A DNA stretch of 64,000 nt from Candidatus Sungiibacteriota bacterium. Its GTDB lineage: Bacteria > Patescibacteriota > Minisyncoccia > Sungbacterales > JACQCQ01. The stretch is from the NCBI GenBank assembly GCA_016201505.1, contig JACQCQ010000002.1, positions 76,750-140,749 on the forward strand. The letters run 5' to 3'. Position 1 is the stretch's first letter, and the number at the start of each line of letters is the position of its first letter. Below, piece by piece: positions 43,415-58,294 of the stretch. The notes beneath the pieces are model-generated. The model was not told the origin of the DNA and did no database searches. It was given only the letters and a program-made list of their open reading frames with translations. A program made the translations under genes and the position numbers.

Positions 43415-44887
43415 ATGCAGATTCTTTTAGAAAATTTTGGGATAGTCTATACCGTAGCTGCCAATAGCTGGTGGTTTATTTTGCCGGCATTTTTTCTGTA
43501 TCTGGCCGCGGAAGCTCACAAATATTCTCTGATTGCGGAAAAAATAAAAGAAACAAAATGGCTGTTGCTTGAGATTAAAGTACCGCGGGAAATTTTAAAA
43601 TCACCCGAGGCCATGGAGCGCGTATTTGCGGGCCTCCACGGGCCCTACGATCCGCCGGAAAAATTTAAAGAATATTATTTGGAGCCAAAAATCCGCTTGT
43701 GGTATAACTTTGAAATTGCCGGCCAAGCCGGCGATATTCGGTTTTATGCCTACGTGCCGGTCAAGTGGCGCAATCTGGTCGAAGCCCAGATGTACGCCCA
43801 GTATCCAGACATCTCGATTGCCGAAGCCAAAGATTACACTGCGTCCGTCCCCGATGACATTCCGAATGCTGATTATGATATGTGGGGCATGGAGTTGACT
43901 CTGGCGCGGGACATGTATTATCCGATTTTAACCTATAAGGAGTTTAAAAGTTTGGCGGAGCCGAATGCTACGAAAGACAATATCGGTGAGGCCTTAAAGA
44001 TTGACCCGCTCTCGGCGTTTGCCGAAAGCCTGGCGAAACTCCACCCCGGCGAGCAAATTTGGTTTCAGTTGCTCGCCCGTCCCTGCGGCAAGCCGGGCCA
44101 GGGTCCGAATGACAATTGGGCGGAAAAAGGTCAGGAACTGGTGGATAAACTGGCCGGACGGGAAAAACCAAAGCCAAAACCCTGGTACGCCTCACTGGTT
44201 GAAATCATCGCCGCATTTTTTGAGGAAGGCGGTGAACTGATTAAAGAGGGCATCAAGCCCTTATCGTCTTCCGGCGAGCGTGGACTCGGCCGCCTGATGG
44301 CTCTACCCGTGAAAGAAGAAAAAAAAGTTGATCTGTCCGAGCTCATACATAAGACTCAAGGCGAAAAGGATGTGATGTCCGCCGTTGAGGAGAAAATTTC
44401 GAAACTGGGCTATGAGACGGTTGCGCGCGTCATCTATGTGGCGAGACGCGATGTTTTTGATATGGCGACCGTCGGATCATTGTTTGGCATGGTCAAGCAA
44501 TTTAACACCAACCATTTAAATGCTTTTAAGCCGAATGGCGATACGATTACCAAAAAAAAGGATTACTTCTGGGGTTTTGTCACTTCCGAGACGCACCAAA
44601 ACCGCATTAAACAGGGCCTAATCTACTCATACAAAAAGCGCAGTCTCTTCTGGGACTTAAAACCGATTGTGCCGTTTTTGCCGAAATCTCCGCTGCCGGC
44701 GCTGCAGGCGGCTTTGTACCACTTCATCCCTAATGCCATGGAGTATTCGCGTTCCAAACCCTTTGTTTTAAACACCGAAGAAATGGCAACATTGTTTCAT
44801 TTTCCGGGTTCGACCGTTTCTTCGCCCTCAATGCCCAGAATCCAGGCCAAAGCCTCGGAACCGCCGATTAATTTACCCACCGGGTAG
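43415..44887 (+). CDS. Membrane-anchored hypothetical protein associated with the downstream ATPase
   Basis: N-terminal TM, LLEIKVPRE..KSPEAME, YAQYP and LNTEEMATLFHFP. Confidence 0.65.
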   Translation: MQILLENFGIVYTVAANSWWFILPAFFLYLAAEAHKYSLIAEKIKETKWLLLEIKVPREILKSPEAMERVFAGLHGPYDPPEKFKEYYLEPKIRLWYNFEIAGQAGDIRFYAYVPVKWRNLVEAQMYAQYPDISIAEAKDYTASVPDDIPNADYDMWGMELTLARDMYYPILTYKEFKSLAEPNATKDNIGEALKIDPLSAFAESLAKLHPGEQIWFQLLARPCGKPGQGPNDNWAEKGQELVDKLAGREKPKPKPWYASLVEIIAAFFEEGGELIKEGIKPLSSSGERGLGRLMALPVKEEKKVDLSELIHKTQGEKDVMSAVEEKISKLGYETVARVIYVARRDVFDMATVGSLFGMVKQFNTNHLNAFKPNGDTITKKKDYFWGFVTSETHQNRIKQGLIYSYKKRSLFWDLKPIVPFLPKSPLPALQAALYHFIPNAMEYSRSKPFVLNTEEMATLFHFPGSTVSSPSMPRIQAKASEPPINLPTG

Positions 44888-44891
44888 AAGT

Positions 44892-45290
44892 ATGAATAAA
44901 GAATTAAGAATAATGGAAAACCGAAAAATAGAAAATTTTAAAGATCTAGAGGCCCGGAAGAAAGGTCAGGCTTTTGTACTCAATATCTACCAGGTTACCA
45001 AACAATTTCCAAAAGAAGAGCAGTTCGGTCTTATTGCTCAGCTTCGGCGGGCTGGTGTCTCCATTACTTCTAATATTGCAGAGGGATTTAGTCGAAGATC
45101 ATATCGAGAAAAATCTCAGTTCTATGCCATCGCATTAGGATCTTTAACCGAGGTCCAAAGCCAGCTTCTAAGTGCACGTGATATTGGATATTTGGACCCA
45201 GATATCAATAACGCTTTGGATAGCGCAGGTGTCGAAATTCATAAAATAATTAACGGACTTATTAAGTCGTCCTTTATTCTTTATTCTTGA
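44892..45290 (+). CDS. Four-helix-bundle protein (23S-IVS protein / bAvd-like family)
   Basis: FKDL, FPKEEQFGLIAQLRRAGVSITSNIAEG and GSLTEVQSQL; alternative start 44913; flanked by inverted 7-mer arrays. Confidence 0.9.
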   Translation: MNKELRIMENRKIENFKDLEARKKGQAFVLNIYQVTKQFPKEEQFGLIAQLRRAGVSITSNIAEGFSRRSYREKSQFYAIALGSLTEVQSQLLSARDIGYLDPDINNALDSAGVEIHKIINGLIKSSFILYS

Positions 45291-45305
45291 TTCTTTATTC
45301 TCAGA

Positions 45306-47318
45306 ATGAACGACGTAACCTACTTTGGCGAAACGAACTTTAGAAACGAGCGGAGGCGCTTCGGGATTAAGCGCGCCGACCGGAGACGGCATATGTACAT
45401 CATCGGGAAAACCGGCACCGGCAAAACAACCCTGCTCGACAATATGACCGTCCAGGATATCGCGCATGGCAATGGCGTCGCCGTGATTGACCCGCACGGC
45501 GAGTACGCCGAACGCATGCTCGCTTTCGTGCCGCAAAACCGCATCCAGGACGTTGTCTACTTTAATCCGGCCGATCTTGATTATCCTTTCGGATTCAATA
45601 TGTTAGAGCAGCCAAAAGCCGAAATGCGCCACTTTGTGGCTTCCGGTTTGATGTCGGTTTTCAAAAAACTCTGGGTTGATGCCTGGTCGGCGCGCATGGA
45701 GTATTTTCTCTCCAATTCAATTCTCTCGCATCTGGAAATGCCGGACTCGACGTTGATGGGAGTGCATCGGATTTTTGGCGATAAGGCCTATCGAAGATCA
45801 CTGGTCTTACAGCTGCAGGATCCGGTTTTAAAGGCCTTTTGGGAAAACGAGTTCGACAAGCTTCCAGAGCAATTTATGCGCGAGGCGGTGGCCGCGATTC
45901 AAAATAAAGTCGGCCAGTTTATTGCCAATCCCTTAATCCGCAACATTATCGGTCAACCCCGTTCCACCTTCAACATTCGCGAAATCATGGATTCAAAAAA
46001 GATTTTAATCGCGAATCTTGCCAAGGGCCGCATCGGCGAAGAAAACTCAAAATTGCTCGGCGCCATGCTGGTCACGCGAATTTATCTTGCCGCCATGTCG
46101 CGGGTTGACGTACCCGAAGATGCCCGCGAGGATTTTTATGTCTATGTGGATGAGTTTCAGAACTTCGCCACCGAATCGTTTGCCTCGATCCTTTCCGAGG
46201 CGCGCAAATACCGCCTCAATTTAACGCTCGCCAATCAATACATGGCGCAGCTGGTTGATGATAAAACAAAGTCCGCCGTGCTCCGCGACGCCATTATCGG
46301 CAACGTCGGCAGCATGATTTCGTTTCGCATCGGCGCGGAAGACGCGGAAGTTTTAGAAAAAGAATTTGCGCCCGAGTTTTTAATTCAGGATTTCGTAAAC
46401 TTGGGATTCGCCAACGTCTATCTGAAATTAATGATCGATAACGTGGCTTCGCGGCCATTCTCGGCAGTTACTCTCGCGCCGATTGACACACCAACCATTA
46501 ATTACGCCAAAGAAATTATTGATTACTCGCGGCTGACCTACGGCCGGTCCCGCGAAGTAGTTGATCAGTCAATCCGGGACTGGGGTGGCTTTGCGATGAA
46601 ATCAGGGGCTTCAGTTTTTTCTGGGGTTCCCGTAGCGCCTCGCCCCGTGCCACACGTATCCGCGCGGGATTCATCTAACGCTTCGGTAATCAACCAGGCG
46701 CCCACCGCCGCCGTTTCCCCGCCAGCAGTCGCATCTGTAGCACGCCCCATCGTTTCAAAAGATGAAAATGGCCAGAAAATGTATCGCGCGACCTGCGCGA
46801 TTGATGGACAAGAAATTTGGGTGCCGTTTCAGCCTGACGGCCGGCGGCCGGTGTATTGCAGTGAACATTTAAGCCAGATTCAGCGTGGGCAAGGCCAAAG
46901 TCAGAACCAAGAATCAAAAAATATGAATCAGGGTTCCGTTGCGACGAGCGCTCTAATGCCAGCAGGAGAAGGAGAGAAGAAACGAAAACGCCGCCGCAAT
47001 CGTAATCGCAATAGACATCGCGAAGGAGCGGCGAGTTCCCATACCCAGGCTTTTCAGTCTGCCCCGGTCGTTCGCACATCAGATCAAACGATCTCGCTCC
47101 GCGACCTTTCACCAAAAAATGACTCAAGCCTGAATACCTTGCGAAAAGATCATGAGCCGCGTCCTCCGATGTCGCCCAAAAAACCAGTTGACCTTGGCGA
47201 GCTTCGCAAGGTGTTGCAAGAGACGATCACACGCTCTGCTCCCCAAACCCCACCGCCGGATTCTCAAAACGAACGAGAGTCAGGCACATTAAAACCGGGG
47301 GAGTCAATTAAGTTTTAA
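45306..47318 (+). CDS. TraD/VirD4/HerA-like P-loop ATPase with CxxC-x17-CxxC-like domain and disordered tail
   Basis: GKTGTGKT, IDPHG, YVDEFQNF, SEARKY and ATCAIDG..VPFQPDGRRPVYCSEH. Confidence 0.85.
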   Translation: MNDVTYFGETNFRNERRRFGIKRADRRRHMYIIGKTGTGKTTLLDNMTVQDIAHGNGVAVIDPHGEYAERMLAFVPQNRIQDVVYFNPADLDYPFGFNMLEQPKAEMRHFVASGLMSVFKKLWVDAWSARMEYFLSNSILSHLEMPDSTLMGVHRIFGDKAYRRSLVLQLQDPVLKAFWENEFDKLPEQFMREAVAAIQNKVGQFIANPLIRNIIGQPRSTFNIREIMDSKKILIANLAKGRIGEENSKLLGAMLVTRIYLAAMSRVDVPEDAREDFYVYVDEFQNFATESFASILSEARKYRLNLTLANQYMAQLVDDKTKSAVLRDAIIGNVGSMISFRIGAEDAEVLEKEFAPEFLIQDFVNLGFANVYLKLMIDNVASRPFSAVTLAPIDTPTINYAKEIIDYSRLTYGRSREVVDQSIRDWGGFAMKSGASVFSGVPVAPRPVPHVSARDSSNASVINQAPTAAVSPPAVASVARPIVSKDENGQKMYRATCAIDGQEIWVPFQPDGRRPVYCSEHLSQIQRGQGQSQNQESKNMNQGSVATSALMPAGEGEKKRKRRRNRNRNRHREGAASSHTQAFQSAPVVRTSDQTISLRDLSPKNDSSLNTLRKDHEPRPPMSPKKPVDLGELRKVLQETITRSAPQTPPPDSQNERESGTLKPGESIKF

Positions 47319-47385
47319 TTGTTGACGCCGAGTCTCTTTCGCGATAGTTTCAAAATAACGAACAGATACTCTCAAAGGAGGGCAT

Positions 47386-47520
47386 ATGTGCGTTCGATGC
47401 GGCCTGAATAAAGGCGAAGTGACCTGTATCTGCGGCGACTTTCTTTGCAAAGACTGTATGAGAGATGAGTGCGTCGAATCCGATGGTGAACACCATGCGG
47501 TGATAGCGTGTCTTTCGTAA
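47386..47520 (+). CDS. 44-aa Cys/His-rich zinc-finger microprotein (B-box-like spacing)
   Basis: MCVRCGLNKGEVTCICGDFLCKDCMRDECVESDGEHHAVIACLS; SD AAAGGAGG upstream. Confidence 0.7.
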   Translation: MCVRCGLNKGEVTCICGDFLCKDCMRDECVESDGEHHAVIACLS

Positions 47521-47534
47521 GCGCTATCATTGAA

Positions 47535-47666
47535 ATGCTCTATCCGTGCGGCAATGCGGATTGCAATAGCAAGGTTTCGTCGCTCAACTTCCTTTCTTGC
47601 CCACGGTGCTTTACGCACGTCTGTTCACTGAAGTGCCTCGAGAATCACAACTGTCCGGAGGCCTAG
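47535..47666 (+). CDS. 43-aa zinc-finger microprotein (zf-HIT/AN1-like spacing)
   Basis: MLYPCGNADCNSKVSSLNFLSCPRCFTHVCSLKCLENHNCPEA; hairpin follows. Confidence 0.65.
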   Translation: MLYPCGNADCNSKVSSLNFLSCPRCFTHVCSLKCLENHNCPEA

Positions 47667-47674
47667 GGCCGAAA

Positions 47675-47708
47675 GGGGTAGGGAAGAAGCCGTTTCTTTC
47701 CTACCCTT
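47675..47708 (+). terminator. Terminator-like hairpin after the zinc-finger ORFs
   Basis: GGGGTAGGGAAGAA...TTCTTTCCTACCCTT. Confidence 0.55.
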
Positions 47709-47745
47709 GACTTTTAATATAAATAGTGTATTATTGCTTAACTAA

Positions 47746-49691: not shown

Positions 49692-49718
49692 GGGTTACGA
49701 GTCTATCCAAGAGTCAGC

Positions 49719-49748
49719 TTGACTTGCATTACGCTACTATAGTAGTAT
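49719..49748 (+). promoter_or_regulatory. Candidate promoter for the 23S-5S unit
   Basis: TTGACT at 49719 and TAGTAT at 49743, just after a terminator. Confidence 0.45.
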
Positions 49749-50381
49749 TTCTGAAGCTAGATTAAGGTAATTATTCGAAGCTATTTGATCAAATGCAAAC
49801 GTACTTCCAATTGAATACCACTGCGGCCTCGGATGAAAGAACATAAGCCCCTCTCGTAGGGAGACTTAGGTAGATGAGGTCGCCGGAAGGCGATTTTTCG
49901 TTCGAACGTCTTTTTAAAAACATTTGATTTCCCACCGAGAAATCAGATTCGCCACTCTCCTCGCGATCGCTTCGCGAACCGTGGTCGCTTCGTCGAGTGA
50001 GCGTTCTAAAAAGATATTCTTCACTTGAGCTTCGTAGGAAAGGTCGCTTCGCTCCCCACATTCAAGAAGTTGGAGATGACGACTAGTTAACTAGAAAACT
50101 AGAAAACTAATCGGTGTCTCTGAAAACGTTTTCGTACGCTTACGGAAAAAGTAGGAGGCAAGATTTTTGACATAAGGCTAATAATTGCAAAAGGGTAATA
50201 AACCGATGCTTCGCATCGGAATGTCTAATTTTCAATTTCTAATTTCTAAACTTTTTACGCCACATCGCTTCATTAGAAATTAGGTATTAGGAATTTGGAA
50301 TTTCCGATGCGGAGCATCGGAAAATTGTATTTTCAGTAAACTCTTTGGAGTTTATTGAAGCGTGATTCGATACAAATTTGT

Positions 50382-50728
50382 TATGTACCTGAATTGTGGA
50401 ATGTAGAAGTAACTAGACGAGAAGAGGGGAGACACTCTATGACGATCGAAGCAGTGCGGAATCTGGAGAAGCGTCTCGGCGACGTAATCCATGTGGAGCT
50501 TGAGAAATTCTCGCGGCAGCACGCTTTCGTGGAGGGGCGCGGCTGGCTCTTGAAGGACGCTGACCACCACCTTCTTTTCCGGACGTCGCAGCAGATGGCT
50601 AGGGTGGCAGCTGGTATCTGCGCTCATCTCTGCACAGAGCGCCAGCCAATCTCGAAGCCGAGAAGAAGCACGTAGCGTTCATCATGGGGAAGGTCAGTAC
50701 GACTTCCCCTCCACAATTCAGGTACATA
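50382..50728 (+). mobile_element. CTGAATTG cassette 1, in the rRNA leader
   Basis: Perfect 19-bp IR TATGTACCTGAATTGTGGA / TCCACAATTCAGGTACATA; SD-led ORF; 3' hairpin 50686-50709. Confidence 0.8.
50439..50675 (+). CDS. Cassette-1 cargo, 78-aa hypothetical protein
   Basis: ATG after GAGGGGAG; MTIEAVRNLEKRLG... Confidence 0.65.
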   Translation: MTIEAVRNLEKRLGDVIHVELEKFSRQHAFVEGRGWLLKDADHHLLFRTSQQMARVAAGICAHLCTERQPISKPRRST

Positions 50729-51116
50729 CAAACATAAGTCGAATCGCAAATGGTTCGGCAGGCTCACCACAAGTGAATCTGTCGAACTTTCTCTCGATGA
50801 TTCTTGAGACTCGTAATTACATTACTTGTCCCGAGCGAAGTCGAGGGATCTCACTCGTTCTCTGATGAATGTCAGAGGACAAGAAAATAAAAAGCGGTTA
50901 TTAAGGGCGCATGGTGGATGCCTTGGCTTTAAACAGCGATGAAGGACGTAGCGTGCTTGCGATAAGCATCGGGGAGGTGGCGAGCAACCTTTGATCCGGT
51001 GATGTCCGAATGGGGAAACCCTAGGGGAGTAATGTTCCCTAACCCGTCGTGTAATAGCGATGTGGAGTCAACCTGGTGAAGTGAAACATCTCAGTAACCA
51101 GAGGAAAAGAAAACAA

Positions 51117-51219
51117 GTTGCTTCGCAACTTTTATCAGCGAATAGCGAATCCCGTACGAATAAGCGAATTCGTTTATTCGAAAAGATTCGTAATTCGTTG
51201 ATGATCGAGCGCAGTGAAC
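51117..51219 (+). other. 23S insertion near E. coli position 230 carrying the 70-nt CGAAT element
   Basis: Lies between GAAAAGAAAACAA and ATTCCGTCAGTAGCGGCGAGCG. Confidence 0.8.
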
Positions 51220-51674
51220 ATTCCGTCAGTAGCGGCGAGCGAACGCGGAACAGCCTAGAGGAATCAGTTTGCTAGTTTACTAGTTCGCTGGTTCCAGTTG
51301 TAAGTTTAGTTCGTAAAAGAGCAATCTTTTGAAGAGTGTAAAAATTAAGACTTCGTTAGGAGAATGGTCCTGGAACGGCCAACCACAGAAGGTAATAGTC
51401 CTGTACACGAAAACGGTCTTATACTCTTGGAACTTTACTTGAGTACTGCCCAGTATGACGACTGGGTAGGAAGCAGGGAGAACTAGTCTCCCAAGGCTAA
51501 ATATGTTTAAAGACCGATAGTGAACCAGTACCGTGAGGGAAAGGTGAAAAGCAGCCCGGTGAGGGCGGTGAAATAGTACCTGAAACCATGTGCTTACAAG
51601 GAGTCGGAGCTCGCTTCGCTGACGAAGCGGTAGATTCAAAATCTTAAAACTGCAAAATCAAATATTTCCTTTTG

Positions 51675-52074
51675 TGTATCTGAATTGAAAAAATAAGGAG
51701 GTGTCAATGGCATACCCCCAAGATGAAATCGCACGCCTGCGGGAAATGCTGCGGCTTGATCAGATGTCGCCGGAAGAGCTGGTACGGTTTCTTAAACTGT
51801 TTTGGGAGATTACGGAGAGCAAGGTTCTCGAGCGCGGCGCCGAAGGCAAGGATGTCTTTAACGCCGGGTTGGCTGAATGGCTGCTCACGATTGCTGTAGT
51901 TGCCATCGTGCGGTCTTTTATTGATCGCGCTGACAAGAGAGCGATTGTCCGAACCCTCAAAGCCTCGTTACCGGCGAAGATTTGGGAAGTTTGCCGGCCG
52001 CTTTGCGAGCCCTTGCTCTCAATTCCCGGGGAGTGATCCGTCAGCCGACGGACTCCCCGTTCAATTCAGATACA
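51675..52074 (+). mobile_element. CTGAATTG cassette 2
   Basis: Perfect 15-bp IR TGTATCTGAATTGAA / TTCAATTCAGATACA; 3' hairpin 52028-52058. Confidence 0.8.
51707..52036 (+). CDS. Cassette-2 cargo, 109-aa helical hypothetical protein
   Basis: SD TAAGGAGGT 4 nt before ATG; stop codon lies inside the conserved hairpin. Confidence 0.75.
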   Translation: MAYPQDEIARLREMLRLDQMSPEELVRFLKLFWEITESKVLERGAEGKDVFNAGLAEWLLTIAVVAIVRSFIDRADKRAIVRTLKASLPAKIWEVCRPLCEPLLSIPGE

Positions 52075-52192
52075 TAAAAATAGTTTTGAATTTTGTAGTT
52101 TAGTTTTTAAATTTAGCGACGCGTCAGCGGAGCGAGTAACGGCATGCCTATTGAAGAATGAGCCAACGAGTGTATGGAGATTGCTTGCTTAA

Positions 52193-52330
52193 CCCCGCCC
52201 TTTGCGCAGTAGCGCAAAAGGCGGAACTGACAGTCTACAGTCTACCGACTACAGCAGATGTTGTTGTTCATGCGGTAGTCAGTAGTCCGTGGTCAGTAGT
52301 CCGCCCCTTGTTAGTGAACAAAGGACGGGG
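52193..52330 (+). other. 23S insertion near E. coli position 615 with CAGTCTA 7-mer arrays
   Basis: Between GCTTAA and GGAGGCGCAGGGAAACCGAG. Confidence 0.75.
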
Positions 52331-52366
52331 GGAGGCGCAGGGAAACCGAGTGTTAACAGCGCGTAA

Positions 52367-52480
52367 GCACCTCACTTTGTTCGGTGCCTATCAGCGAATA
52401 TCGAATCCAAAACGAATAAACGAATTCGTTTATTCGAAAAAGATTTGTAATTCGTTGATGACCGAGCGAAGCGAGGCTGC
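52367..52480 (+). other. 23S insertion near E. coli position 655 with a CGAAT element
   Basis: Core 52390-52460; basal stem CCTCACTTTGTTCGGT/ACCGAGCGAAGCGAGG. Confidence 0.8.
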
Positions 52481-52989
52481 ATGTAGTCTTCATACGACCC
52501 GAAACCAAGTGAGCTACCCATGGGCAGGGTGAACTTTGAGTAACATCAAAGGGAGGCCCGAACCGGTTGGTCGTACAACGCCTTCGGATGACCTGTGGGT
52601 TGGAGTGAAAAGCTAATCGAACTTGGAAATAGCTGGTTCTCTTCGAAATAGCTTTAGGGCTAGCGTCAAATCACACCGTAATGGAGGTAGAGCACTGGAT
52701 GGACTGTAATGGGGCAACCCAGGCAGTCCAATCAAACTCCGAATGCCGTTACGCGTTATTTTGGCAGTCAGCAGGCGGGGGCTAAGCTCCGTCGTGCAAG
52801 AGGGAAACAGCCCAGACCGCCGATTAAGGTCCCTAAATCAATGCTAAGTGTATAAGGCGGTGGAATTTTTAAAACAGCGAGGAGGTTGGCTTAGAAGCAG
52901 CCATCCTTTAAAGAGTGCGTAACAGCTCACTCGTCAAAAGATTCTGCGCCACAAATGTAGCGGGGCTAAGCATTGTACCGAAGTCGCGG

Positions 52990-53133
52990 GTTGCGCGCTT
53001 CACTTTTGTTCAGCGCGCTCATCATCGAATAGCGAATCACGAACGAATAAACGAATCACCATAACCGTATTCGTATATTCGCAGCAAATTCGTTATTCGC
53101 TGATAGAGCGCCGAGCAGCAGCGAGGCGCGTAA
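52990..53133 (+). other. 23S helix-45 insertion with a divergent, apparently inverted CGAAT element
   Basis: Between CCGAAGTCGCGG and CGGTAAGAGAGC; core 53021-53104. Confidence 0.8.
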
Positions 53134-54034
53134 CGGTAGAAGAGCATTTGCATCAGCAGTGAAGGAGGACCCGCGAGGGCCTCTGGAGCGGTGCGAAGAG
53201 AGAATGTTGGCACTAGTAACCGCAAGTTAGGTGAGAATCCTAACCGCCGAAAGTCCAAGGTTTCCTTGGCAATGCTAATCAGCTAAGGGTTAGTCGGTCC
53301 TAAGGGAATGGTGAAAACCGCACCCGATGGATACACGGTTAATATTCCGTGACTCGAGTTTTGATCGATGGCGGGACGGAGCGTTGTACATTCTATGGAT
53401 TATTGGATTTCCATTTCTGTTATGAGGAAAGCGCGTAGGCAAATCCGCGCGCTGGGTTAGACCCGCTTCCAAGTAATGGGATAATGCGTTTCTTCGGATT
53501 CGCAAATAGAAAGGAGCACGCTTCCCAGAAAAACGTCTAAGATTATCTTGACTCGAACCGTACCGCAAACCGACACAGGTGGACTAGTGGAGAACACTAA
53601 GGCGAACGGGTGAGACCTCGTTAAGGAACTCGGCAAAAAAGCGGCCGTAAGTTCGCAATAAGGCCTGCCTCATTGAGGCTGATAGAAGGAAAGAAAGCAC
53701 TGCACAGTGTTGGTTTTTGAATTTGTGTTTTGTGCAACGTATTCTCGAAAAGCGTTTGCATTTGTTCCAGCGACAAATGCAACTCGCCAAGCTCGCAAAA
53801 ACTTTTTGTTTCGACAAAAAGACCAAGCTTTTCGCTCGCTTGAGCGTTTTCTTAAATACGTTTGCACCGATATGGATTCTTGATCGAACACTGTGCAGTG
53901 CAAAAGAGAAAGGGCAGATTTTTGCTGATGCAAAAATCTGAAACTAGAAAACTAGAGCCGCGAAAGCGGCGTAACTAGAAAACTATAGTTGTAACTCTGA
54001 ATTGCGGAGTTAAATAGTTCGCTGGGGAAAAGGT

Positions 54035-54130
54035 ATGAACTCGCAAGGAGAAGTAACGCCACTGGCGTTGATGGGACTTGCGACCGTTTTTGCCATATAT
54101 CTTCTCTGCCAGCTCATCTGGGCGGGATAG
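54035..54130 (+). CDS. Cassette-3 cargo a, 31-aa TM peptide
   Basis: MNSQGEVTPLALMGLATVFAIYLLCQLIWAG; preceded by GGGGAAAAGGT. Confidence 0.6.
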   Translation: MNSQGEVTPLALMGLATVFAIYLLCQLIWAG

Positions 54131-54142
54131 TGGAGGATATGA

Positions 54143-54271
54143 ATGTCCAGGCTGGCGGCATATCCGCTGTTCCTTGTCTGTTGGACTCCGTTCATGATTG
54201 TGATCGGGTTCATCATCGGGATCATGATCGAGCGATCGGGTCGGATTCTTGCGGCCGAGGAGGAGGTATGA
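54143..54271 (+). CDS. Cassette-3 cargo b, 42-aa TM peptide
   Basis: MSRLAAYPLFLVCWTPFMIVIGFIIGIMIERSGRILAAEEEV; SD GGAGGA. Confidence 0.65.
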   Translation: MSRLAAYPLFLVCWTPFMIVIGFIIGIMIERSGRILAAEEEV

Positions 54272-54390
54272 GAACAGCCATCGGTTTTATGATCACTATT
54301 GGGATCATGGCTGCTGTTGTGATCATCGATCGGTGGTGCAAGCGGCGCCTGCCGATGCGCGGCATCTTCGGGCCGTATCGGCAGGCATAA
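54268..54390 (+). CDS. Cassette-3 cargo c, 40-aa TM peptide with basic tail
   Basis: MRTAIGFMITIGIMAAVVIIDRWCKRRLPMRGIFGPYRQA; SD GAGGAGG; ATGA overlap with cargo b. Confidence 0.65.
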   Translation: MRTAIGFMITIGIMAAVVIIDRWCKRRLPMRGIFGPYRQA

Positions 54391-54716
54391 GGAGACGAGG
54401 GAGTGCGATCCGTCAGTTGACGGAGACTCCCCCAACCCTACTAAAAATGTAGGGCCGCAATTCAGGGTTACAACAGGTCTAAGTTTAGGCGCGATTGCGC
54501 GAGCGAGCGGTAAGTTCTTAAAGAAAGGAGAAGTACGCGGACCGAAGAGGATCTGCCGAATCGAGGGCAGCACATGTGCATACCGGAGTAGTCGACGGTC
54601 ATTCGGCAAGACCTTACGCCCCTCCGCATAGTTCTTTGATCGCTCGTGCAAAAAAATATGGAGGGCGCAGACCTTCGGGTCTCGGTATAGGCAGGTAGCC
54701 TGCCCCTCCGCCATTC

Positions 54717-54755
54717 GCCAACTGGTGAAGCCAACTGGTGAAGCCAACTGGTGAA
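54717..54755 (+). repeat. Three perfect 13-bp tandem repeats
   Basis: GCCAACTGGTGAA x3. Confidence 0.9.
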
Positions 54756-55157
54756 CTCGAGCAGAGAGTCTCCCGCCAGGGTCTCTTCTCTGTAAAAGAT
54801 GGGCGGTCCCGCCGCCCGTTACTCGAGCACCCCAGCGGCCTCCCTAGCCCGGGGCCGCTGGGGTTCGAAAATCACTATGTCGGGCGCGACGTGAGCTCTC
54901 CTGGTAGGGGATTGCGTCGACTCACCCGGCAGAACGCGGCGGCGGTTCCCCCCGGAGCCGCCGCCGTCGTAAACACTTTTCTCTTATTTTTCTCCTCGAA
55001 ATTCGAAGTCGGATTTCGATCCTTCTATCAGCCTCTTTGAGGCCGCAGCGAAAGATTCTCTGGCGACTGTTTACCAAAAACACAGGTCCCTGCTAAACAC
55101 GTAAGTGGATGTATAGGGGCTGACGCCTGACCAATGCGAGAAGGTTAAAGATTGTGG

Positions 55158-55277
55158 TTGCTTCGCTCTTGCTTCGTAACATCAGCGAATAGCGAATCCC
55201 GTACGAATAAGCGAATTCGTTTATTCGAAAAGATTCGTAATTCGTTGATGAAAAGCTGTGGAGCGTGAGCGGAGCAG
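55158..55277 (+). other. 23S helix-68 insertion with a CGAAT element identical to 51134-51203
   Basis: Core 55181-55250; basal stem TTGCTTCGCTC/GAGCGGAGCAG. Confidence 0.85.
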
Positions 55278-55317
55278 CTAACGGTCCCAAGCCCTCGTCA
55301 ATGTCAGCGATAACTAT

Positions 55318-55808
55318 AAGTAACGATTGTAGTTATAAAATTTGGCTATATGTTCCCAATTTGTCTGCGAGCGTTAGCGAGTGGCTAACAAATCGCAATC
55401 CCGTGGCCTTACAGTCACGAGACAAAACAAATTCGGGAAACCCGAAGTCACGCCGCGCAATACGAAAGTGTTGGTTGCGGGGGAAGGCTTTGGGGACTGG
55501 AAAACCCGCGAATGCAGAAGTACTTCAATACCACGTAGTATTGAAGTAACAATCTTCTGCCGATTCGTGAAGGTAAGATGGATGTATTCCGCTCGCAATA
55601 TGAACGGATGTATCCGCCGAAGCCTTGGCGAAGGCGGACAATCAGCAGGAAAGATTCTAATTGGTAAAAATTAGAAAATCCTCAGAGACTACACGCCAAA
55701 CTCTTCAATGCACTCGAGTCTGTCGAGCTAATTGGATAGATGATATAGTCCGAACTCTATGGTGACATAGAGAGTTGACCCGAGAGAGGGTCAGAGTAAC
55801 ACTAAATG
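55318..55808 (+). ncRNA. Group I intron at the L1917-equivalent site, no homing endonuclease ORF
   Basis: Exon ..TAACTAT^AATCGTT; guide AACGATTGTAGTTAT pairs with both exons; P7 blocks CAGAGACTA and GATATAGTCC; terminal G. Confidence 0.9.
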
Positions 55809-55822
55809 AATCGTTCTAAGGT

Positions 55823-56142
55823 GAATAACACTGCCTTAGTAAAATCTAGCTATATCGGTGAACACCTTACACTTTAATACTTTAAAGTATTAAAGTGTAA
55901 GACAATACCGAGGCAACCCCGCCAAAATTTTGCACGAGCAAAACTTAGGCGGGTGAGTCCGTAGAGACTACACGCTAGACTCCAATCCGCAGTTGGCGGA
56001 GGAGAAGATATAGTCCGGCCTCTATGGCGACATAGAGAGATGCAGAGAAATCGTGCATCCGGATTCATGATTCATAATTCTTGCTTGCCCTTCCGTAGCT
56101 CTAGAGAGCAAAGGAGGGATTCATGATTCTAGTAACAATTCG
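55823..56142 (+). ncRNA. Group I intron at the L1931-equivalent site, no homing endonuclease ORF
   Basis: Exon CTAAGGT^AGCGTAATTCC; guide GCCTTAG; GTAGAGACTA and AAGATATAGTCC; terminal G. Confidence 0.9.
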
Positions 56143-56616
56143 AGCGTAATTCCTTGTCGGGTAAGTTCCGACGTGCACGAAAGGCGTAACGACTGGAGAA
56201 CTGTCTCAACGAGGTGCCCGGTGAAAATACAATATCGGTGAAGATGCCGATTACCCACAGATAGACGAAAAGACCCCGGGAGCTTTACTGCAGCTTGATA
56301 TTGGCAATGAATACTTTATGCGTAGCATAGATGGGAGACTTTGAAGTCGTGGTTTCGGCCATGATGGAGTCGCCAGTGAAATACCATTCTTAAAGAATTC
56401 TTTGTCTAACTTGTAGAGACGAAACTCTATGCAGACAGTGTCTGGCGGGCAGTTTAAGTGGGGCACTTGCCTCCCAAAAAGTAATGGAGGCGTTTATTAA
56501 GGTTGGCTAGCGCCGGATGGAAATCGGCGTCGTCCCGTAAAGGGAAATGCCAGCTTGACTGCAAGGCGGGTATGCCGCGCAGGTGCGAAAGCAGAACTTA
56601 GTGATCCGATGGCTAT

Positions 56617-56712
56617 GGTTGTTTAGTTTACTAGTTTCGGTCTTTATTGACCTACTGGTTTTCTAGTTTTCGAACTAGTTAACTAGAAAACTGGTGAACT
56701 GATCAATTTCTT
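56617..56712 (+). other. 23S insertion near E. coli position 2405 with ACTAGAAA 8-mer arrays
   Basis: Between GTGATCCGATGGC and GGCCAAAGCTCA..AAAAGCTACCCCGGGGATAAC. Confidence 0.7.
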
Positions 56713-56739
56713 GCTAGAACAAGGCCAAAGCTCATCAGC

Positions 56740-56770
<31 letters not shown>

Positions 56771-56902
56771 GCTTCCAAGAGTTCATATCGACGAAGCGGT
56801 TCGGCACCTCGATGTCGGCTCGGCTTATCCTGGAGGTGGAGAAGCTTCCAAGGGTTTGGCTGTTCGCCAATTAAAAAGTCACGCGAGCTGGGTTCAAACC
56901 GT

Positions 56903-57740
56903 CAACAAAAGAACCCGAAAATGACATCGAAACATTCAACAAGTTTTTGATAGGAGCTTGTTTGAAACACACGGCGGCCCCTGGTAGCAATGCCGGGGAG
57001 CGAAACCCGTAGAATCCCAAGGGGGTCCGGGTAAGAAAACCGACTCATATCGATGAAATCCACGTATGCATTCAACCTGTCATATGTTAGGATAATATCG
57101 AGGGAAGTCGTGTATGTTGCAATCGTTAACGCAAAATCAAAGGGCATATATTGCAGGTTTTCTTGATGGAGATGGAAGCATTTATGTGCGAGCAAAACCA
57201 AACCCTACTTATCGGTTTGGCTTTCAAATTGCTCCATATATAGTATTTTTCCAGTCACAATCTAGTCAGGAAAGATTTGGGGAGATATGCAAGTTGATTA
57301 GCGTGGGACATTTACGCATTCGAAGTGACGGTATTCTTGAGTACATCATAAATCGTATTGATGAAATCAAGATGTTGCTGGAATGTGTTCGTCCCTTCGC
57401 AATTCTCAAAAGGCGACAGATAGATTTGATGTTGAAAATAATTGAATCAAAGTCGCAAGTAGAGAACGAAGACGATTTTGAGAAACTTCTTCAACTAGTA
57501 AATTCTTATCGAGAATTAAACTATTCTAAGAAGAGAAAGCAACGTTCATTGACCCCGTAGAGACTTGTCGTGAAAGCGGCAGAGTAATTCAGAAATGATT
57601 TGCTAACACGTCGGTCACCCATTAAATGTAGATACTGTTTAATGGGTTGGTGGTATAGTCCAATCCCTCTAGTAATAGAGGAAGGTTAAGCATTTAGTAA
57701 CCTTAATTCTTGACTCTAAATTCTTAATTCTAGTAAACAG
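56903..57740 (+). ncRNA. Group I intron at the L2593-equivalent site, with homing endonuclease
   Basis: Exon AAACCGT^CGTGAGACAG; GTAGAGACT and GGTATAGTCC core; terminal G. Confidence 0.92.
57114..57560 (+). CDS. Single-motif LAGLIDADG homing endonuclease (I-CreI-like)
   Basis: AYIAGFLDGDGSI, 148 aa, inside the L2593 intron (the site class I-CreI occupies). Confidence 0.93.
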   Translation: MLQSLTQNQRAYIAGFLDGDGSIYVRAKPNPTYRFGFQIAPYIVFFQSQSSQERFGEICKLISVGHLRIRSDGILEYIINRIDEIKMLLECVRPFAILKRRQIDLMLKIIESKSQVENEDDFEKLLQLVNSYRELNYSKKRKQRSLTP

Positions 57741-57883
57741 CGTGAGACAGGTTGGTCTCCTATCTTCTGTGGGCGTAGAAATTTGAGAGGGCTTCTGGAC
57801 AGTACGAGAGGACCTTCAGGAACAAACCTCTGGTGTACCAGCTGTTCCGCCAGGAGCATCGCTGGGTAGCTATGTTTGGTTGT

Positions 57884-57914
<31 letters not shown>

Positions 57915-58087
57915 ACGCCTCAAGATAAGATTTCATAGATCCCTGAGAGATTATCAGGTTGATAGGGTGCAGGTGTACATGGAGTAATCCATTCAGCCGA
58001 GCACTACTAATAGATCATCACCACTTTTTATTTTCCTTTGCCCGCCGAAGCGTTATGCGACGGCAGGACGGTGAGAATAATACAATT

Positions 58088-58128
58088 CTTGCCCGCCTAA
58101 GTTTTTCGTTAGAAAAATTTTGGCGGGG
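58088..58128. repeat. REP-like hairpin, CCCGCCTAAGTTTT...AAAATTTTGGCGGG family
   Basis: Inverted copy inside the L1931 intron (about 55917-55957); degenerate copy at about 62760-62840. Confidence 0.7.
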
Positions 58129-58294
58129 TTTATTACCCTTTTGCAGTTATTAGCTTTGAATGTGCGTTTCTCCAAAATAAAACTTGCCGACCTCGAACGC
58201 GCCGGACTCGGCCGCGAGGTCTGAGAGGGAAAGGAGAGCCTCTAAGCTCTTATCCTACCCTCTCTCTAACACCGAGTTTCGTATTTTAAAATTC

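Follow-up and report, generated by a model that had tools for sequence, protein, structure and literature searches.

Why does one 23S rRNA precursor carry three inserts that share their ends and layout and enclose unrelated small genes? The question arises from the window (the whole 64,000-nt stretch of DNA analyzed here), for which a preliminary description had proposed a family of rRNA-embedded gene cassettes. Intervening sequences (IVSs) of rRNA are usually regarded as selfish or neutral, excised and destroyed. Our best reading, drawn from sequence comparison, is that an RNase III-type IVS has probably been reused as an exchangeable expression cassette.

Three stem-closed frames in one precursor

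The features are listed below in plus-strand order; helix numbers (H25, H63, H45) are presumed from E. coli flanking motifs.

49719..49748, + strand: sigma-70-like promoter ahead of the 23S precursor (by match to the consensus only)
50174..50204, + strand: 23S processing stem, 5' arm (partner 58127-58157; 31 nt, 94%; 32 pairs)
50382..50400, + strand: cassette 1 left arm, in the 23S leader (19 bp with the right arm)
50439..50675, + strand: cassette 1 cargo, 78-aa orphan ORF with an SD-like site ahead
50686..50709, + strand: cassette 1 3' hairpin, adjoining the closing stem
50710..50728, + strand: cassette 1 right arm, pairing with 50382-50400
50889..58018, + strand: host 23S rRNA gene including insertions
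51610..52136, + strand: outer hairpin at the H25 tip, its loop containing cassette 2 (repeat search and fold)
51675..51689, + strand: cassette 2 left arm, pairing with 52060-52074 (extends to 20, one G.U)
51707..52036, + strand: cassette 2 cargo, orphan ORF of 109 aa, all-helical, with a near-perfect SD ahead
52028..52058, + strand: cassette 2 3' hairpin, which overlaps with the stop codon of the 109-aa ORF
52060..52074, + strand: cassette 2 right arm, partner of 51675-51689
53670-55040: large H63 insertion enclosing cassette 3
53988..54007, + strand: cassette 3 left arm, within the large H63 insertion (20 bp, one G.U)
54008..54034, + strand: cassette 3 5' leader with the ATAGTTCG motif, common to frames in relatives
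54035..54130, + strand: cassette 3 cargo a, 31-aa hydrophobic peptide
54143..54271, + strand: cassette 3 cargo b, 42-aa hydrophobic peptide
54268..54390, + strand: cassette 3 cargo c, hydrophobic 40-aa peptide that shares ATGA with b
54399..54454, + strand: cassette 3, two 3' hairpins (54399-54432 and 54436-54454)
54455..54474, + strand: cassette 3 right arm, partner of 53988-54007

The architecture described for the three segments was confirmed, i.e., the end motif and the arms occur at exactly three frames, all in the 23S precursor. The left-end motif has six matches in the 816-kb genome, namely the three left arms and, read in reverse complement, the three right arms, and a profile search of the genome revealed no additional frame copy. 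The inverted repeats are self-complementary as described, forming three arm pairs of 19, 20 and 20 bp with one G.U in each of cassettes 2 and 3; the stems have cores of 15-20 bp that are lengthened by outer arms. Cassette 2 is located at H25, a classic IVS helix, whereas cassettes 1 (leader) and 3 (H63) are off the classic sites. The processing stem 50174-50204/58127-58157 places all three frames inside one precursor. The promoter at 49719-49748 is argued by position, not by score, because three sigma-70-like sites were found vs. 4.8 in shuffles; no plus-strand promoter match lies within the three frames. The genome contains an RNase III gene in the region C18:126618-127013 (PF14622, E 1.3e-37, in a 238-aa frame; TIGR02191 gave 152 bits with the domain alone scored, below the 166 cut-off).

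The sense-strand cargos are indeed unrelated: (i) 78 aa in cassette 1; (ii) 109 aa in cassette 2; (iii) 31, 42 and 40 aa in cassette 3. ORFs led by Shine-Dalgarno (SD) sites fill 75, 88 and 92% of the respective interiors, a coverage matched by 2, 0 and 0 of 60 shuffles. The cassette 3 peptides have hydropathy peaks of 2.2-2.5 (19-residue), and the 109-aa protein contains a hydrophobic stretch as well (peak 2.0). For the five ORFs of the window no homologues were found: searches with the 78- and 109-aa proteins returned self only, plus two long weak matches; there was no Pfam match to the cargo, nor did it resemble the PF05635 (23S_rRNA_IVP four-helix-bundle) gene that the genome itself carries; Foldseek searches of PDB and the viral library with the 109-aa model (pLDDT 77) gave no match with an E value of 0.001 or less; and the atlas and fold searches named no family for the cargos.

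The hairpin pattern yielded five overlapping matches at three places in the genome (50686-50709, 52028-52058 and 54399-54432), and no U-tail follows the 3' hairpins of the window's three frames. The second hairpin of cassette 3 (54436-54454) precedes the stem.

The frame in relatives

Twelve genomes or contigs yielded 16 frames. Helix 45, like H25 a classic IVS site, has six of them and the leader five; H25 and H63 have one each, and three are free-standing, so that the frame occupies five kinds of position. One motif scan missed cassette 2 itself and so under-counts. The helix-45 frames belong to three other families. Leader frames are present in independent genomes; an H25 or H63 frame was not found in a second genome. 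The three free-standing copies lie behind promoter-like sequences and keep the stem. Embedding in rRNA is thus not a property of every frame. A same-ended family does exist, but the ends taken for a new motif are those of the stem that closes an insertion at helix 45, which other families of the class also have. The shared hairpin also needs qualification: all 16 frames have a strong 3' hairpin, nearly always against the closing stem and freely varying in sequence, whereas the GTC-AG-N-GAC loop is specific to the genome of the window. The loop motif was rejected as a family signature, given four lone matches without a hairpin in 150 relatives and ten chance matches in viral contigs.

The exchange of cargo is most apparent at the leader hairpin site, where the same ends enclose four different cargos in G001, L103, L143 and G003, and where G004 has a short empty hairpin. 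Both the further copies with new cargos and the empty vs. filled alleles at an orthologous site, as anticipated, are thereby observed. The L103 cargo is DUF397-like (E 1.4e-5), with no close relative found, so no donor can be named; by-eye resemblances between the cargos of cassette 1 and L143, and of L103 and G003, were not supported on comparison. L143 has SD-led antisense ORFs too, covering 86%. The helix-45 arrays comprise 2-4 ORFs behind a repeated SD spacer, the first ORF in G202 being only 27 aa long. Across the frames 26 ORFs were called, an approximate number (one G413 ORF was mis-started and others were missed). In G413, two free-standing copies end in terminator-like hairpins, and the free copies carry ~60 nt of copied 23S flank that is closer to the 23S of another family than to its own.

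Two wider distributions were considered and rejected. For spread beyond the class, the partner arm in rRNA context was absent for 18 of 21 genome-collection matches and 87 of 89 metagenome matches (full flanks were available for only 80 of the 89), and no same-contig arm pair occurred in 370 genomes of other classes; two matches in G350 have arms that face outward and are located in genes. For a phage origin, 29 viral loci contained one arm and none contained its partner, and the 77-aa cargo described below has no viral relative.

In the stem alignment, where good pairing is partly by construction because the frames were found via an arm search, and where kin are non-independent, 281 of 288 cells are Watson-Crick, six are G.U, none is A.C and one is other; 10 of 18 columns contain more than one pair type. 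The presence of G.U without A.C suggests that pairing is kept on the sense strand, in agreement with the proposed selection on RNA or ssDNA pairing. A 77-aa cargo common to G224, G245 and G413 is 72-79% identical, with a dN/dS of 0.04-0.08 that is rough because dS is near saturation (1.7-3.8). Judged by these ratios, this cargo is under purifying selection, which indicates that at least some cargos are real proteins. As the window ORFs have no homologues, selection is established only for this sister cargo, in other families.

Shine-Dalgarno sites and competing explanations

The 16S rRNA of the window has no CCTCC (anti-SD) tail, and the cargos retain strong SD sites. The frames provide a compact test case for the question of why accessory genes in these bacteria retain SD sites after the ribosome has lost the complement; the same frame is present in carriers whose 16S tail is missing, U-rich or variant. 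The window cargo leaders pair with their own 16S tail at only -4.6 to -9.3. SD-like sites precede 9% of 305 long genes vs. 12.6% of random stretches, and pairing with the U-rich tail has a cargo median of about -5.4 vs. -1.8 for long genes. Canonical SD sites are near-perfect, down to -17.9 kcal/mol, and the 16S-tail complement is lost in G000, G001, G003, G022, G016 and G026. The SD spacer of G202 and G245 pairs with their own variant 16S tail at -12.7 to -13.6 (one at -7.6), and more weakly with the canonical tail, at -8.7 to -9.9 (one at -5.6). Sites in G202, G245 and G089 match the carrier's own variant tail, suggesting translation at home. G413 keeps the selected cargo with a tail pairing of only -2.4 to -3.9. 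Outside rRNA, orphan families keep their SD sites across genera, and SD-led short ORFs without a stem gave 93 intergenic candidates, many probably spurious. A 16S-tail-like 13-mer at C16:84435, considered as a trans-acting anti-SD, was present in one of five relatives and was dropped. No description of the helix-45 arrays or of the mismatch between SD sites and the 16S tail was found in the literature.

The strongest competing explanation, unlikely in our view, is that the frames are a safe harbor: the stem makes an insert removable, SD-led genes from an orphan pool land there, and the RNA is excised and degraded, so that the window cargos are unexpressed. There is a precedent in Coxiella burnetii, where, in the sections of PMC4990558 used here, the RNA of the helix-45 IVS is short-lived once excised and the protein of its ORF is probably not produced. 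The lack of homologues for the window cargos, the mismatch of their SD sites with the cell's 16S tail, and the stem-free ORFs at many intergenic places (the above candidates) also fit. However, the ORFs are intact, sense-oriented and fill the interiors, the sister cargo is under purifying selection, the 3' hairpin is universal among the frames, and the stem is retained in free-standing copies, where there is no rRNA to protect.

It is less probable still that the frames are non-autonomous DNA elements (MITE, IS-derived or hairpin-recognized) that have TG...CA-like ends, carry passenger genes and are mobilized in trans by an enzyme. Terminal inverted repeats and several copy positions, two of them nested in the loops of other hairpin repeats, would be expected for such elements, and a RAYT-like tyrosine transposase fragment is present in the genome, as is a single tyrosine recombinase. 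Conversely, the flanks of eight frames compared by eye have no target duplication, the profile search recovered three copies, not many spread ones, none of the 16 copies is inverted, the stems have G.U without A.C on the sense strand, and the free copies of G413 moved along with rRNA flank outside the stem.

A very improbable alternative is that the RNAs are released for use in another cell, i.e., as stem-closed, SD-led mini-mRNAs that a presumed epibiont makes at the rRNA rate and that are read by a host ribosome with a normal anti-SD. It would account for near-perfect canonical SD sites where the 16S tail has lost its complement, for their retention across genera in orphan families, and for a selected cargo in G413, where the tail is unusable; yet the sites of G202, G245 and G089 fit their own tail, and a U-rich tail still pairs weakly with purine-rich leaders. 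We know of no export route for such RNAs, and no paper describing one was found in the literature. Introns, self-spliced or enzyme-spliced to leave ligated rRNA and circular RNA, can practically be dismissed: the same 23S has intron-type insertions downstream, one with a LAGLIDADG gene (57114-57560), but no Rfam intron model matches 49700-55100 at E up to 1, the frames are too small for a catalytic core, and around leader and free-standing copies there are no exons that could be ligated.

The proposed expression cassette and known systems

Returning to the reused IVS, we consider it fairly probable that the three segments are copies of one stem-closed frame, likely derived from a helix-45 IVS, with predicted RNase III excision, likely translation and cargo likely exchanged by recombination. 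The rRNA promoter would transcribe the frame, and its stem of 17-25 bp would allow removal by RNase III, making the frame tolerable to the ribosome at helix tips. With cleavage inside the stem, the released RNA would keep the SD site, about 10-40 nt inward, together with the 3' hairpin, which may slow 3' decay. Homologous or short-patch recombination, acting on the shared ends and the repeated SD spacers, could change the cargo and move the frames, presumably with no dedicated enzyme; no dedicated recombinase for the frames was found and no recombination intermediate was seen.

The original proposal of a gene-capture or expression system is retained for the same-ended, exchangeable frames and the protein-coding sister cargo, and not for confinement to rRNA or a conserved loop motif. 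The SD/16S-tail mismatch of the window, along with the Coxiella precedent, counted against its "rRNA-like levels" of product. That the rRNA spacer is a recombinase-free platform for gene capture and expression, with stem-closed mini-mRNAs released at the rRNA rate and read by the cell's own ribosome, is a tentative suggestion to which we give slightly less than even weight; the full version, with messages delivered to and translated by host-cell ribosomes in anti-SD-less lineages such as that of the window, appears highly unlikely. The small genes carried by this single stem family change from set to set, and at least one of them is strongly selected; the family moves among rRNA sites and families, and persists outside rRNA, where a promoter-like sequence of its own precedes it. 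Should the cargo be translated, a reduced genome would be using its strongest promoter also to express fast-changing genes, which are overlooked when annotation masks rRNA.

Integron cassettes are promoterless, unrelated small ORFs, each followed by a hairpin and transcribed from an outside promoter. The frames resemble them in small, promoterless, unrelated ORFs with a 3' hairpin and in transcription from outside, and differ in that the frame ends are inverted and integron ends direct. No IntI integrase was found in the genome, the one tyrosine recombinase scoring 175-184 bits with Xer models and 112 with the integron model (cut-off 265; domain only), and no attC core motif follows the ORFs in a by-eye comparison. 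There was no PF00078 (reverse transcriptase) match in the genome, and Pfam and genome searches found no homing endonuclease or reverse transcriptase ORF within the frames.

PeSL cassettes in hyperplastic regions of T4-type phage DNA are bounded by direct repeats of a promoter plus terminator (Arbiol et al. 2010, PMC2839356). As far as the parts of that paper used here go, in both systems ORFan cargo is shuffled, without a dedicated recombinase, among conserved regulatory modules that contain G/C-rich stem-loops; unlike PeSL, the frame consists of an RNA stem that inverted repeats form within a cellular rRNA precursor, and its interior is promoter-free. No PeSL-type direct repeats surround the window ORFans; the only direct repeats are the SD spacers of the helix-45 arrays.

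The same kind of host and the same gene were covered by Tsurumaki et al. (2024, PMC11270868): in the portions drawn on here, CPR rRNA has non-intron insertions at known IVS sites, some of 500-1000 bp and of unknown function, the short ones were suggested to be RNase III-cleaved IVSs, and insertion ORFs were sorted by Pfam (LAGLIDADG, GIY-YIG, IVP). Compared with these portions, the shared frame, the Pfam-less SD-led cargo, and the leader and free-standing copies are found only here.

The best reading is that the frame family is a variation on the RNase III-type 23S IVS, probably with exchangeable cargo as the added feature. ORF-bearing, RNase III-excised 23S IVSs of Leptospira and Salmonella are cited in PMC4990558, and cleavage in mid-stem was demonstrated for such a stem. 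Within the scope of those sections, the frames resemble the Coxiella IVS in being 23S helix-tip inserts that have a long terminal stem, contain a sense ORF and occur where the genome encodes RNase III; helix 45 itself is the site of six sister frames. In contrast, frame cargo is not S23p/PF05635 and varies between genomes, with one cargo under purifying selection vs. a decaying S23p in Coxiella; the SD site is well inside the stem, a 3' hairpin is always present and up to four genes are carried; and the stem is reused in the leader, at H25, at H63 and outside rRNA.

The frames of the 23S precursor and their cargo

The window, on contig C5, belongs to a genome of 816 kb, whose size and rRNA layout suggest a Patescibacteria (Parcubacteria-type) organism, and holds one 23S gene with many insertions, together with a 5S gene, the 16S gene being located on a different contig. 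Helix numbers (H25, H45, H63) are those that we take to apply from E. coli flanking motifs. A promoter-like site and a long stem place all three stem-closed segments (frames) within a single 23S precursor:

49719-49748, promoter-like site
50174-50204 / 58127-58157, arms of a 31-32-bp stem
50382-50728, cassette 1, leader, 78-aa ORF
51675-52074, cassette 2, H25, 109-aa ORF
53988-54474, cassette 3, H63 insertion, hydrophobic peptides of 31, 42 and 40 aa

The genome has six matches to the left-end motif, which form three inward-facing pairs, and three places with the hairpin pattern, every match of either kind lying in 50382-54474; a profile search, using eight frames, found no additional copies in the genome. 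The frame pattern of the window is real and not a product of chance. The preliminary description had proposed three segments with shared ends in the 23S precursor, each with sense-strand ORFs led by Shine-Dalgarno (SD) sites, and both proposals held; its GTC-AG-GAC hairpin loop, offered as a family feature, proved peculiar to the window. The ORFs cover 75-92% of the interiors, a coverage equalled by 2, 0 and 0 of 60 shuffles, and their third-position GC is 0.59-0.72 versus 0.54 +/- 0.07 in long genes. None of these cargo ORFs has a significant match in Pfam or PHROGs, and the 78-aa and 109-aa proteins matched only themselves among 5.8 billion proteins. For the 109-aa protein, the full HMMER scan added two long weak matches, and comparison with the order (62 genomes) yielded two matches (E about 0.02); the model predicted from its sequence alone comprises five helices (pLDDT 77), and the structure search returned no fold match for it.

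Cargo exchange and the wider family

Comparison of the orthologous leader site, which the preliminary description had advised, revealed filled alleles with different cargos. The same stem is present in the 23S leader of two genomes of the same family but other genera (G001, G003) and of metagenome contigs L103 and L143, with 69-aa membrane-type, 90-aa, 58-aa DUF397-like and 76-aa proteins as cargo; genome G004 has a short hairpin only. No likeness was found among the ten cargos compared from the window and its relatives' frames (best E 0.024). The window's equivalent leader hairpin (near 50851-50880) is empty, with cassette 1 located further upstream; thus, the frame position has changed. A second frame of G001 lies outside rRNA, directly 3' of a TTGACA-type promoter-like sequence and after the orthologue of gene 45306-47318.

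The recommended scan of other Patescibacteria also yielded further copies. A two-mismatch motif search of the 62 genomes of the order identified a helix-45 frame in G022, and a relaxed 15-letter pattern matched 36 of 401 genomes of the class, with inward-facing pairs in the window's own genome (G000), G001, G224, G078, G202, G245, G089 and, twice, G413. The reversed-pattern control gave no genome with both orientations, and no same-contig arm pair occurred among 370 genomes of other classes. Altogether, 12 sources yielded 16 frames: helix 45 accounts for six, the leader for five, and H25 and H63 for one each, while three are free-standing. A scan of 112 partial, overlapping 23S loci showed no additional frame at either H25 or H63, although cassette 2 was missed by it as well. 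Across the 18 positions of the stem (288 cells), 281 pairs are Watson-Crick, 6 are G.U, 1 is other and none is A.C, with more than one pair type in 10 of the 18 columns, counts that are weaker than they look because the frames were detected via their arms and are mutually related. TGAATT never varies, about half of the frames have a leader motif resembling TAGTTC ahead of the first SD, and every frame has a strong 3'-end hairpin of free sequence. The window contributes the spread of the frame to leader, H25 and H63 within one precursor and cargo exchange at a single site within one family, and it connects such frames to those at helix 45.

Frames of G224, G078, G245 and G413 hold arrays of 2-4 ORFs, each preceded by a repeated SD spacer. 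A 77-aa ORF common to G224, G245 and G413 is 72-79% identical, with differences mostly at third positions and dN/dS of 0.08, 0.04 and 0.08 in the comparisons among these genomes (dS near saturation), which points to purifying selection on this cargo; one more pair is homologous (E 3.6e-7). Both G413 frame copies lie upstream of its 23S, with promoter-like sequence on one side and a terminator-like hairpin on the other; ~60 nt of 23S flank, closer to the G224/G078/G202/G245 type than to G413's own, is retained in each. We read these copies, from their sequence, as a probable between-family transfer followed by independent expression; G413 has a listed contamination of 5%, but the copies are on the same contig as its own 23S.

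Predicted excision, a possible message and the Shine-Dalgarno problem

With a single 23S copy, inserts at helix tips must probably be removed. RNase III is encoded in the window genome and, according to an excerpt of PMC12641178, is retained in CPR; its known excision signal, as excerpted from PMC4990558 and PMC11270868, is a long stem at helix 25 or 45. The best explanation, and a reasonably probable one, is that the frame is an RNase III-excised intervening sequence (IVS), likely derived from one at helix 45, acting as an exchangeable message cassette for small genes. RNase III would cut the frame out of the rRNA precursor at the stem, and the released RNA may act as a message, as suggested by the SD inside the stem, the constant 3' hairpin and the keeping of the stem outside rRNA. 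Cargo might be exchanged by recombination in shared ends and spacers, by analogy with PeSL, the T4-type phage cassettes (PMC2839356, in part).

The window frames would work like ORF-bearing IVSs and share their structural features, but the window cargo is not the usual S23p protein. The Coxiella IVS loses its SD through the cut and is degraded (excerpt of PMC4990558), and neither IVS nor protein was seen in the ribosome (excerpt of PMC13392368), whereas in the window frames the SD is inside the stem and a 3' hairpin is always present. Judged by the features that define those elements, the frames are not MITEs, integrons or PeSL cassettes. A common frame with interchangeable non-IVP cargo was not described in the passages of the mostly open-access literature covered.

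Among other readings, that of a safe harbour for the cargo is rather improbable. A DNA transposon is less likely still, as no target duplication was seen in the flanks of eight frames. No reverse transcriptase was found in the genome, and its only tyrosine recombinase scores Xer-like. That the RNA is a message for the host cell seems very doubtful. An intron is scarcely credible, since intron models had no match in the frame region and the frames lack its defining features.

The window genome's 16S (contig C18, about 106420-106460) has a U-rich tail without CCTCC after helix 45, as do G001, G003, G016, G022 and G026. CCTCC is reported in only 48% of Parcubacteria (PMC9297842, in part), and organisms without it generally have no SD sites (PMC6107228, in part). 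In long genes of the window genome, SD sites are no more frequent than by chance (9% of 305 reach -7 kcal/mol, versus 12.6% of random stretches). Against the canonical tail, the pairing energy is -6.4 to -17.9 for ten cargos; against that of their own 16S, it is -4.6 to -9.3 for the window's five. In three carriers, G202, G245 and G089, the tail is a variant that gives strong pairing with the cargo spacers (-12.7 to -15.1, one -7.6); therefore, some carriers are clearly able to read cargo SD sites themselves. First-gene leaders in G202 and G245 fit the canonical tail better than the variant one, and G413 has no usable 16S tail. Separately, the window genome has up to 93 short SD-led candidate ORFs between genes, and a 13-nt intergenic sequence that matches the canonical 16S 3' tail exactly (C16:84430-84450), present in one of five relatives.

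Other inserts and neighbours

Further elements were observed in and around rRNA:

47320-47720 (window); L160:5000-9200; L335; L178/L011: slot after gene 45306-47318
51134-51204, 55181-55251, 52390-52460, 53020-53106 (window): 71-nt hairpin repeat
C18:107450-107750; L016, L021, L030 (two), L288, L293: antisense-unit stem family
C18:111400-112300 and 108800-109800: 16S leader ORF and 16S insertion ORFs

In each of the four family genomes examined, the slot is filled by a different array of SD-led orphan genes and GC hairpins, including a small Cys-rich ORF homologous across three genera. The 71-nt repeat sits at several 23S helix tips, with two copies identical, and is present in relatives too. 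Antisense units, closed by another stem family in rRNA insertions, combine an SD-led orphan ORF with promoter-like sequence and a terminator-like hairpin, the cargo being different each time. The 16S leader has an SD-like-led ORF of ~130 aa in a long inverted repeat, and the 16S insertion has small SD-led ORFs in its loops.

The H63 insertion remainder (54480-55035), a GC-rich hairpin series with a 14-nt unit three times near 54716-54757, had no match that reached an Rfam family's cut-off. In the 3' half of the window 23S, intron-type insertions lie at 55320-56140 and 56903-57740, one of which encodes a single-domain LAGLIDADG protein (57114-57560). Outside rRNA, 44868-45301 holds a PF05635 four-helix-bundle gene (44892-45290) between inverted low-complexity arms. 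In G382, a 23S insertion (L291) has a sense SD-led 78-aa orphan, an unrelated 18-bp closing stem and, likewise, 3' hairpins. A second inverted-repeat frame in 23S (L029:4190-4730 of G001; L103:3710-4380) encloses tRNA or tRNA-like genes, in a different array in each of the two genomes, those of L029 being Thr and Ile by ARAGORN; tRNA genes within 23S also occur in L013 (Val, Ser) and L017 (Asn).
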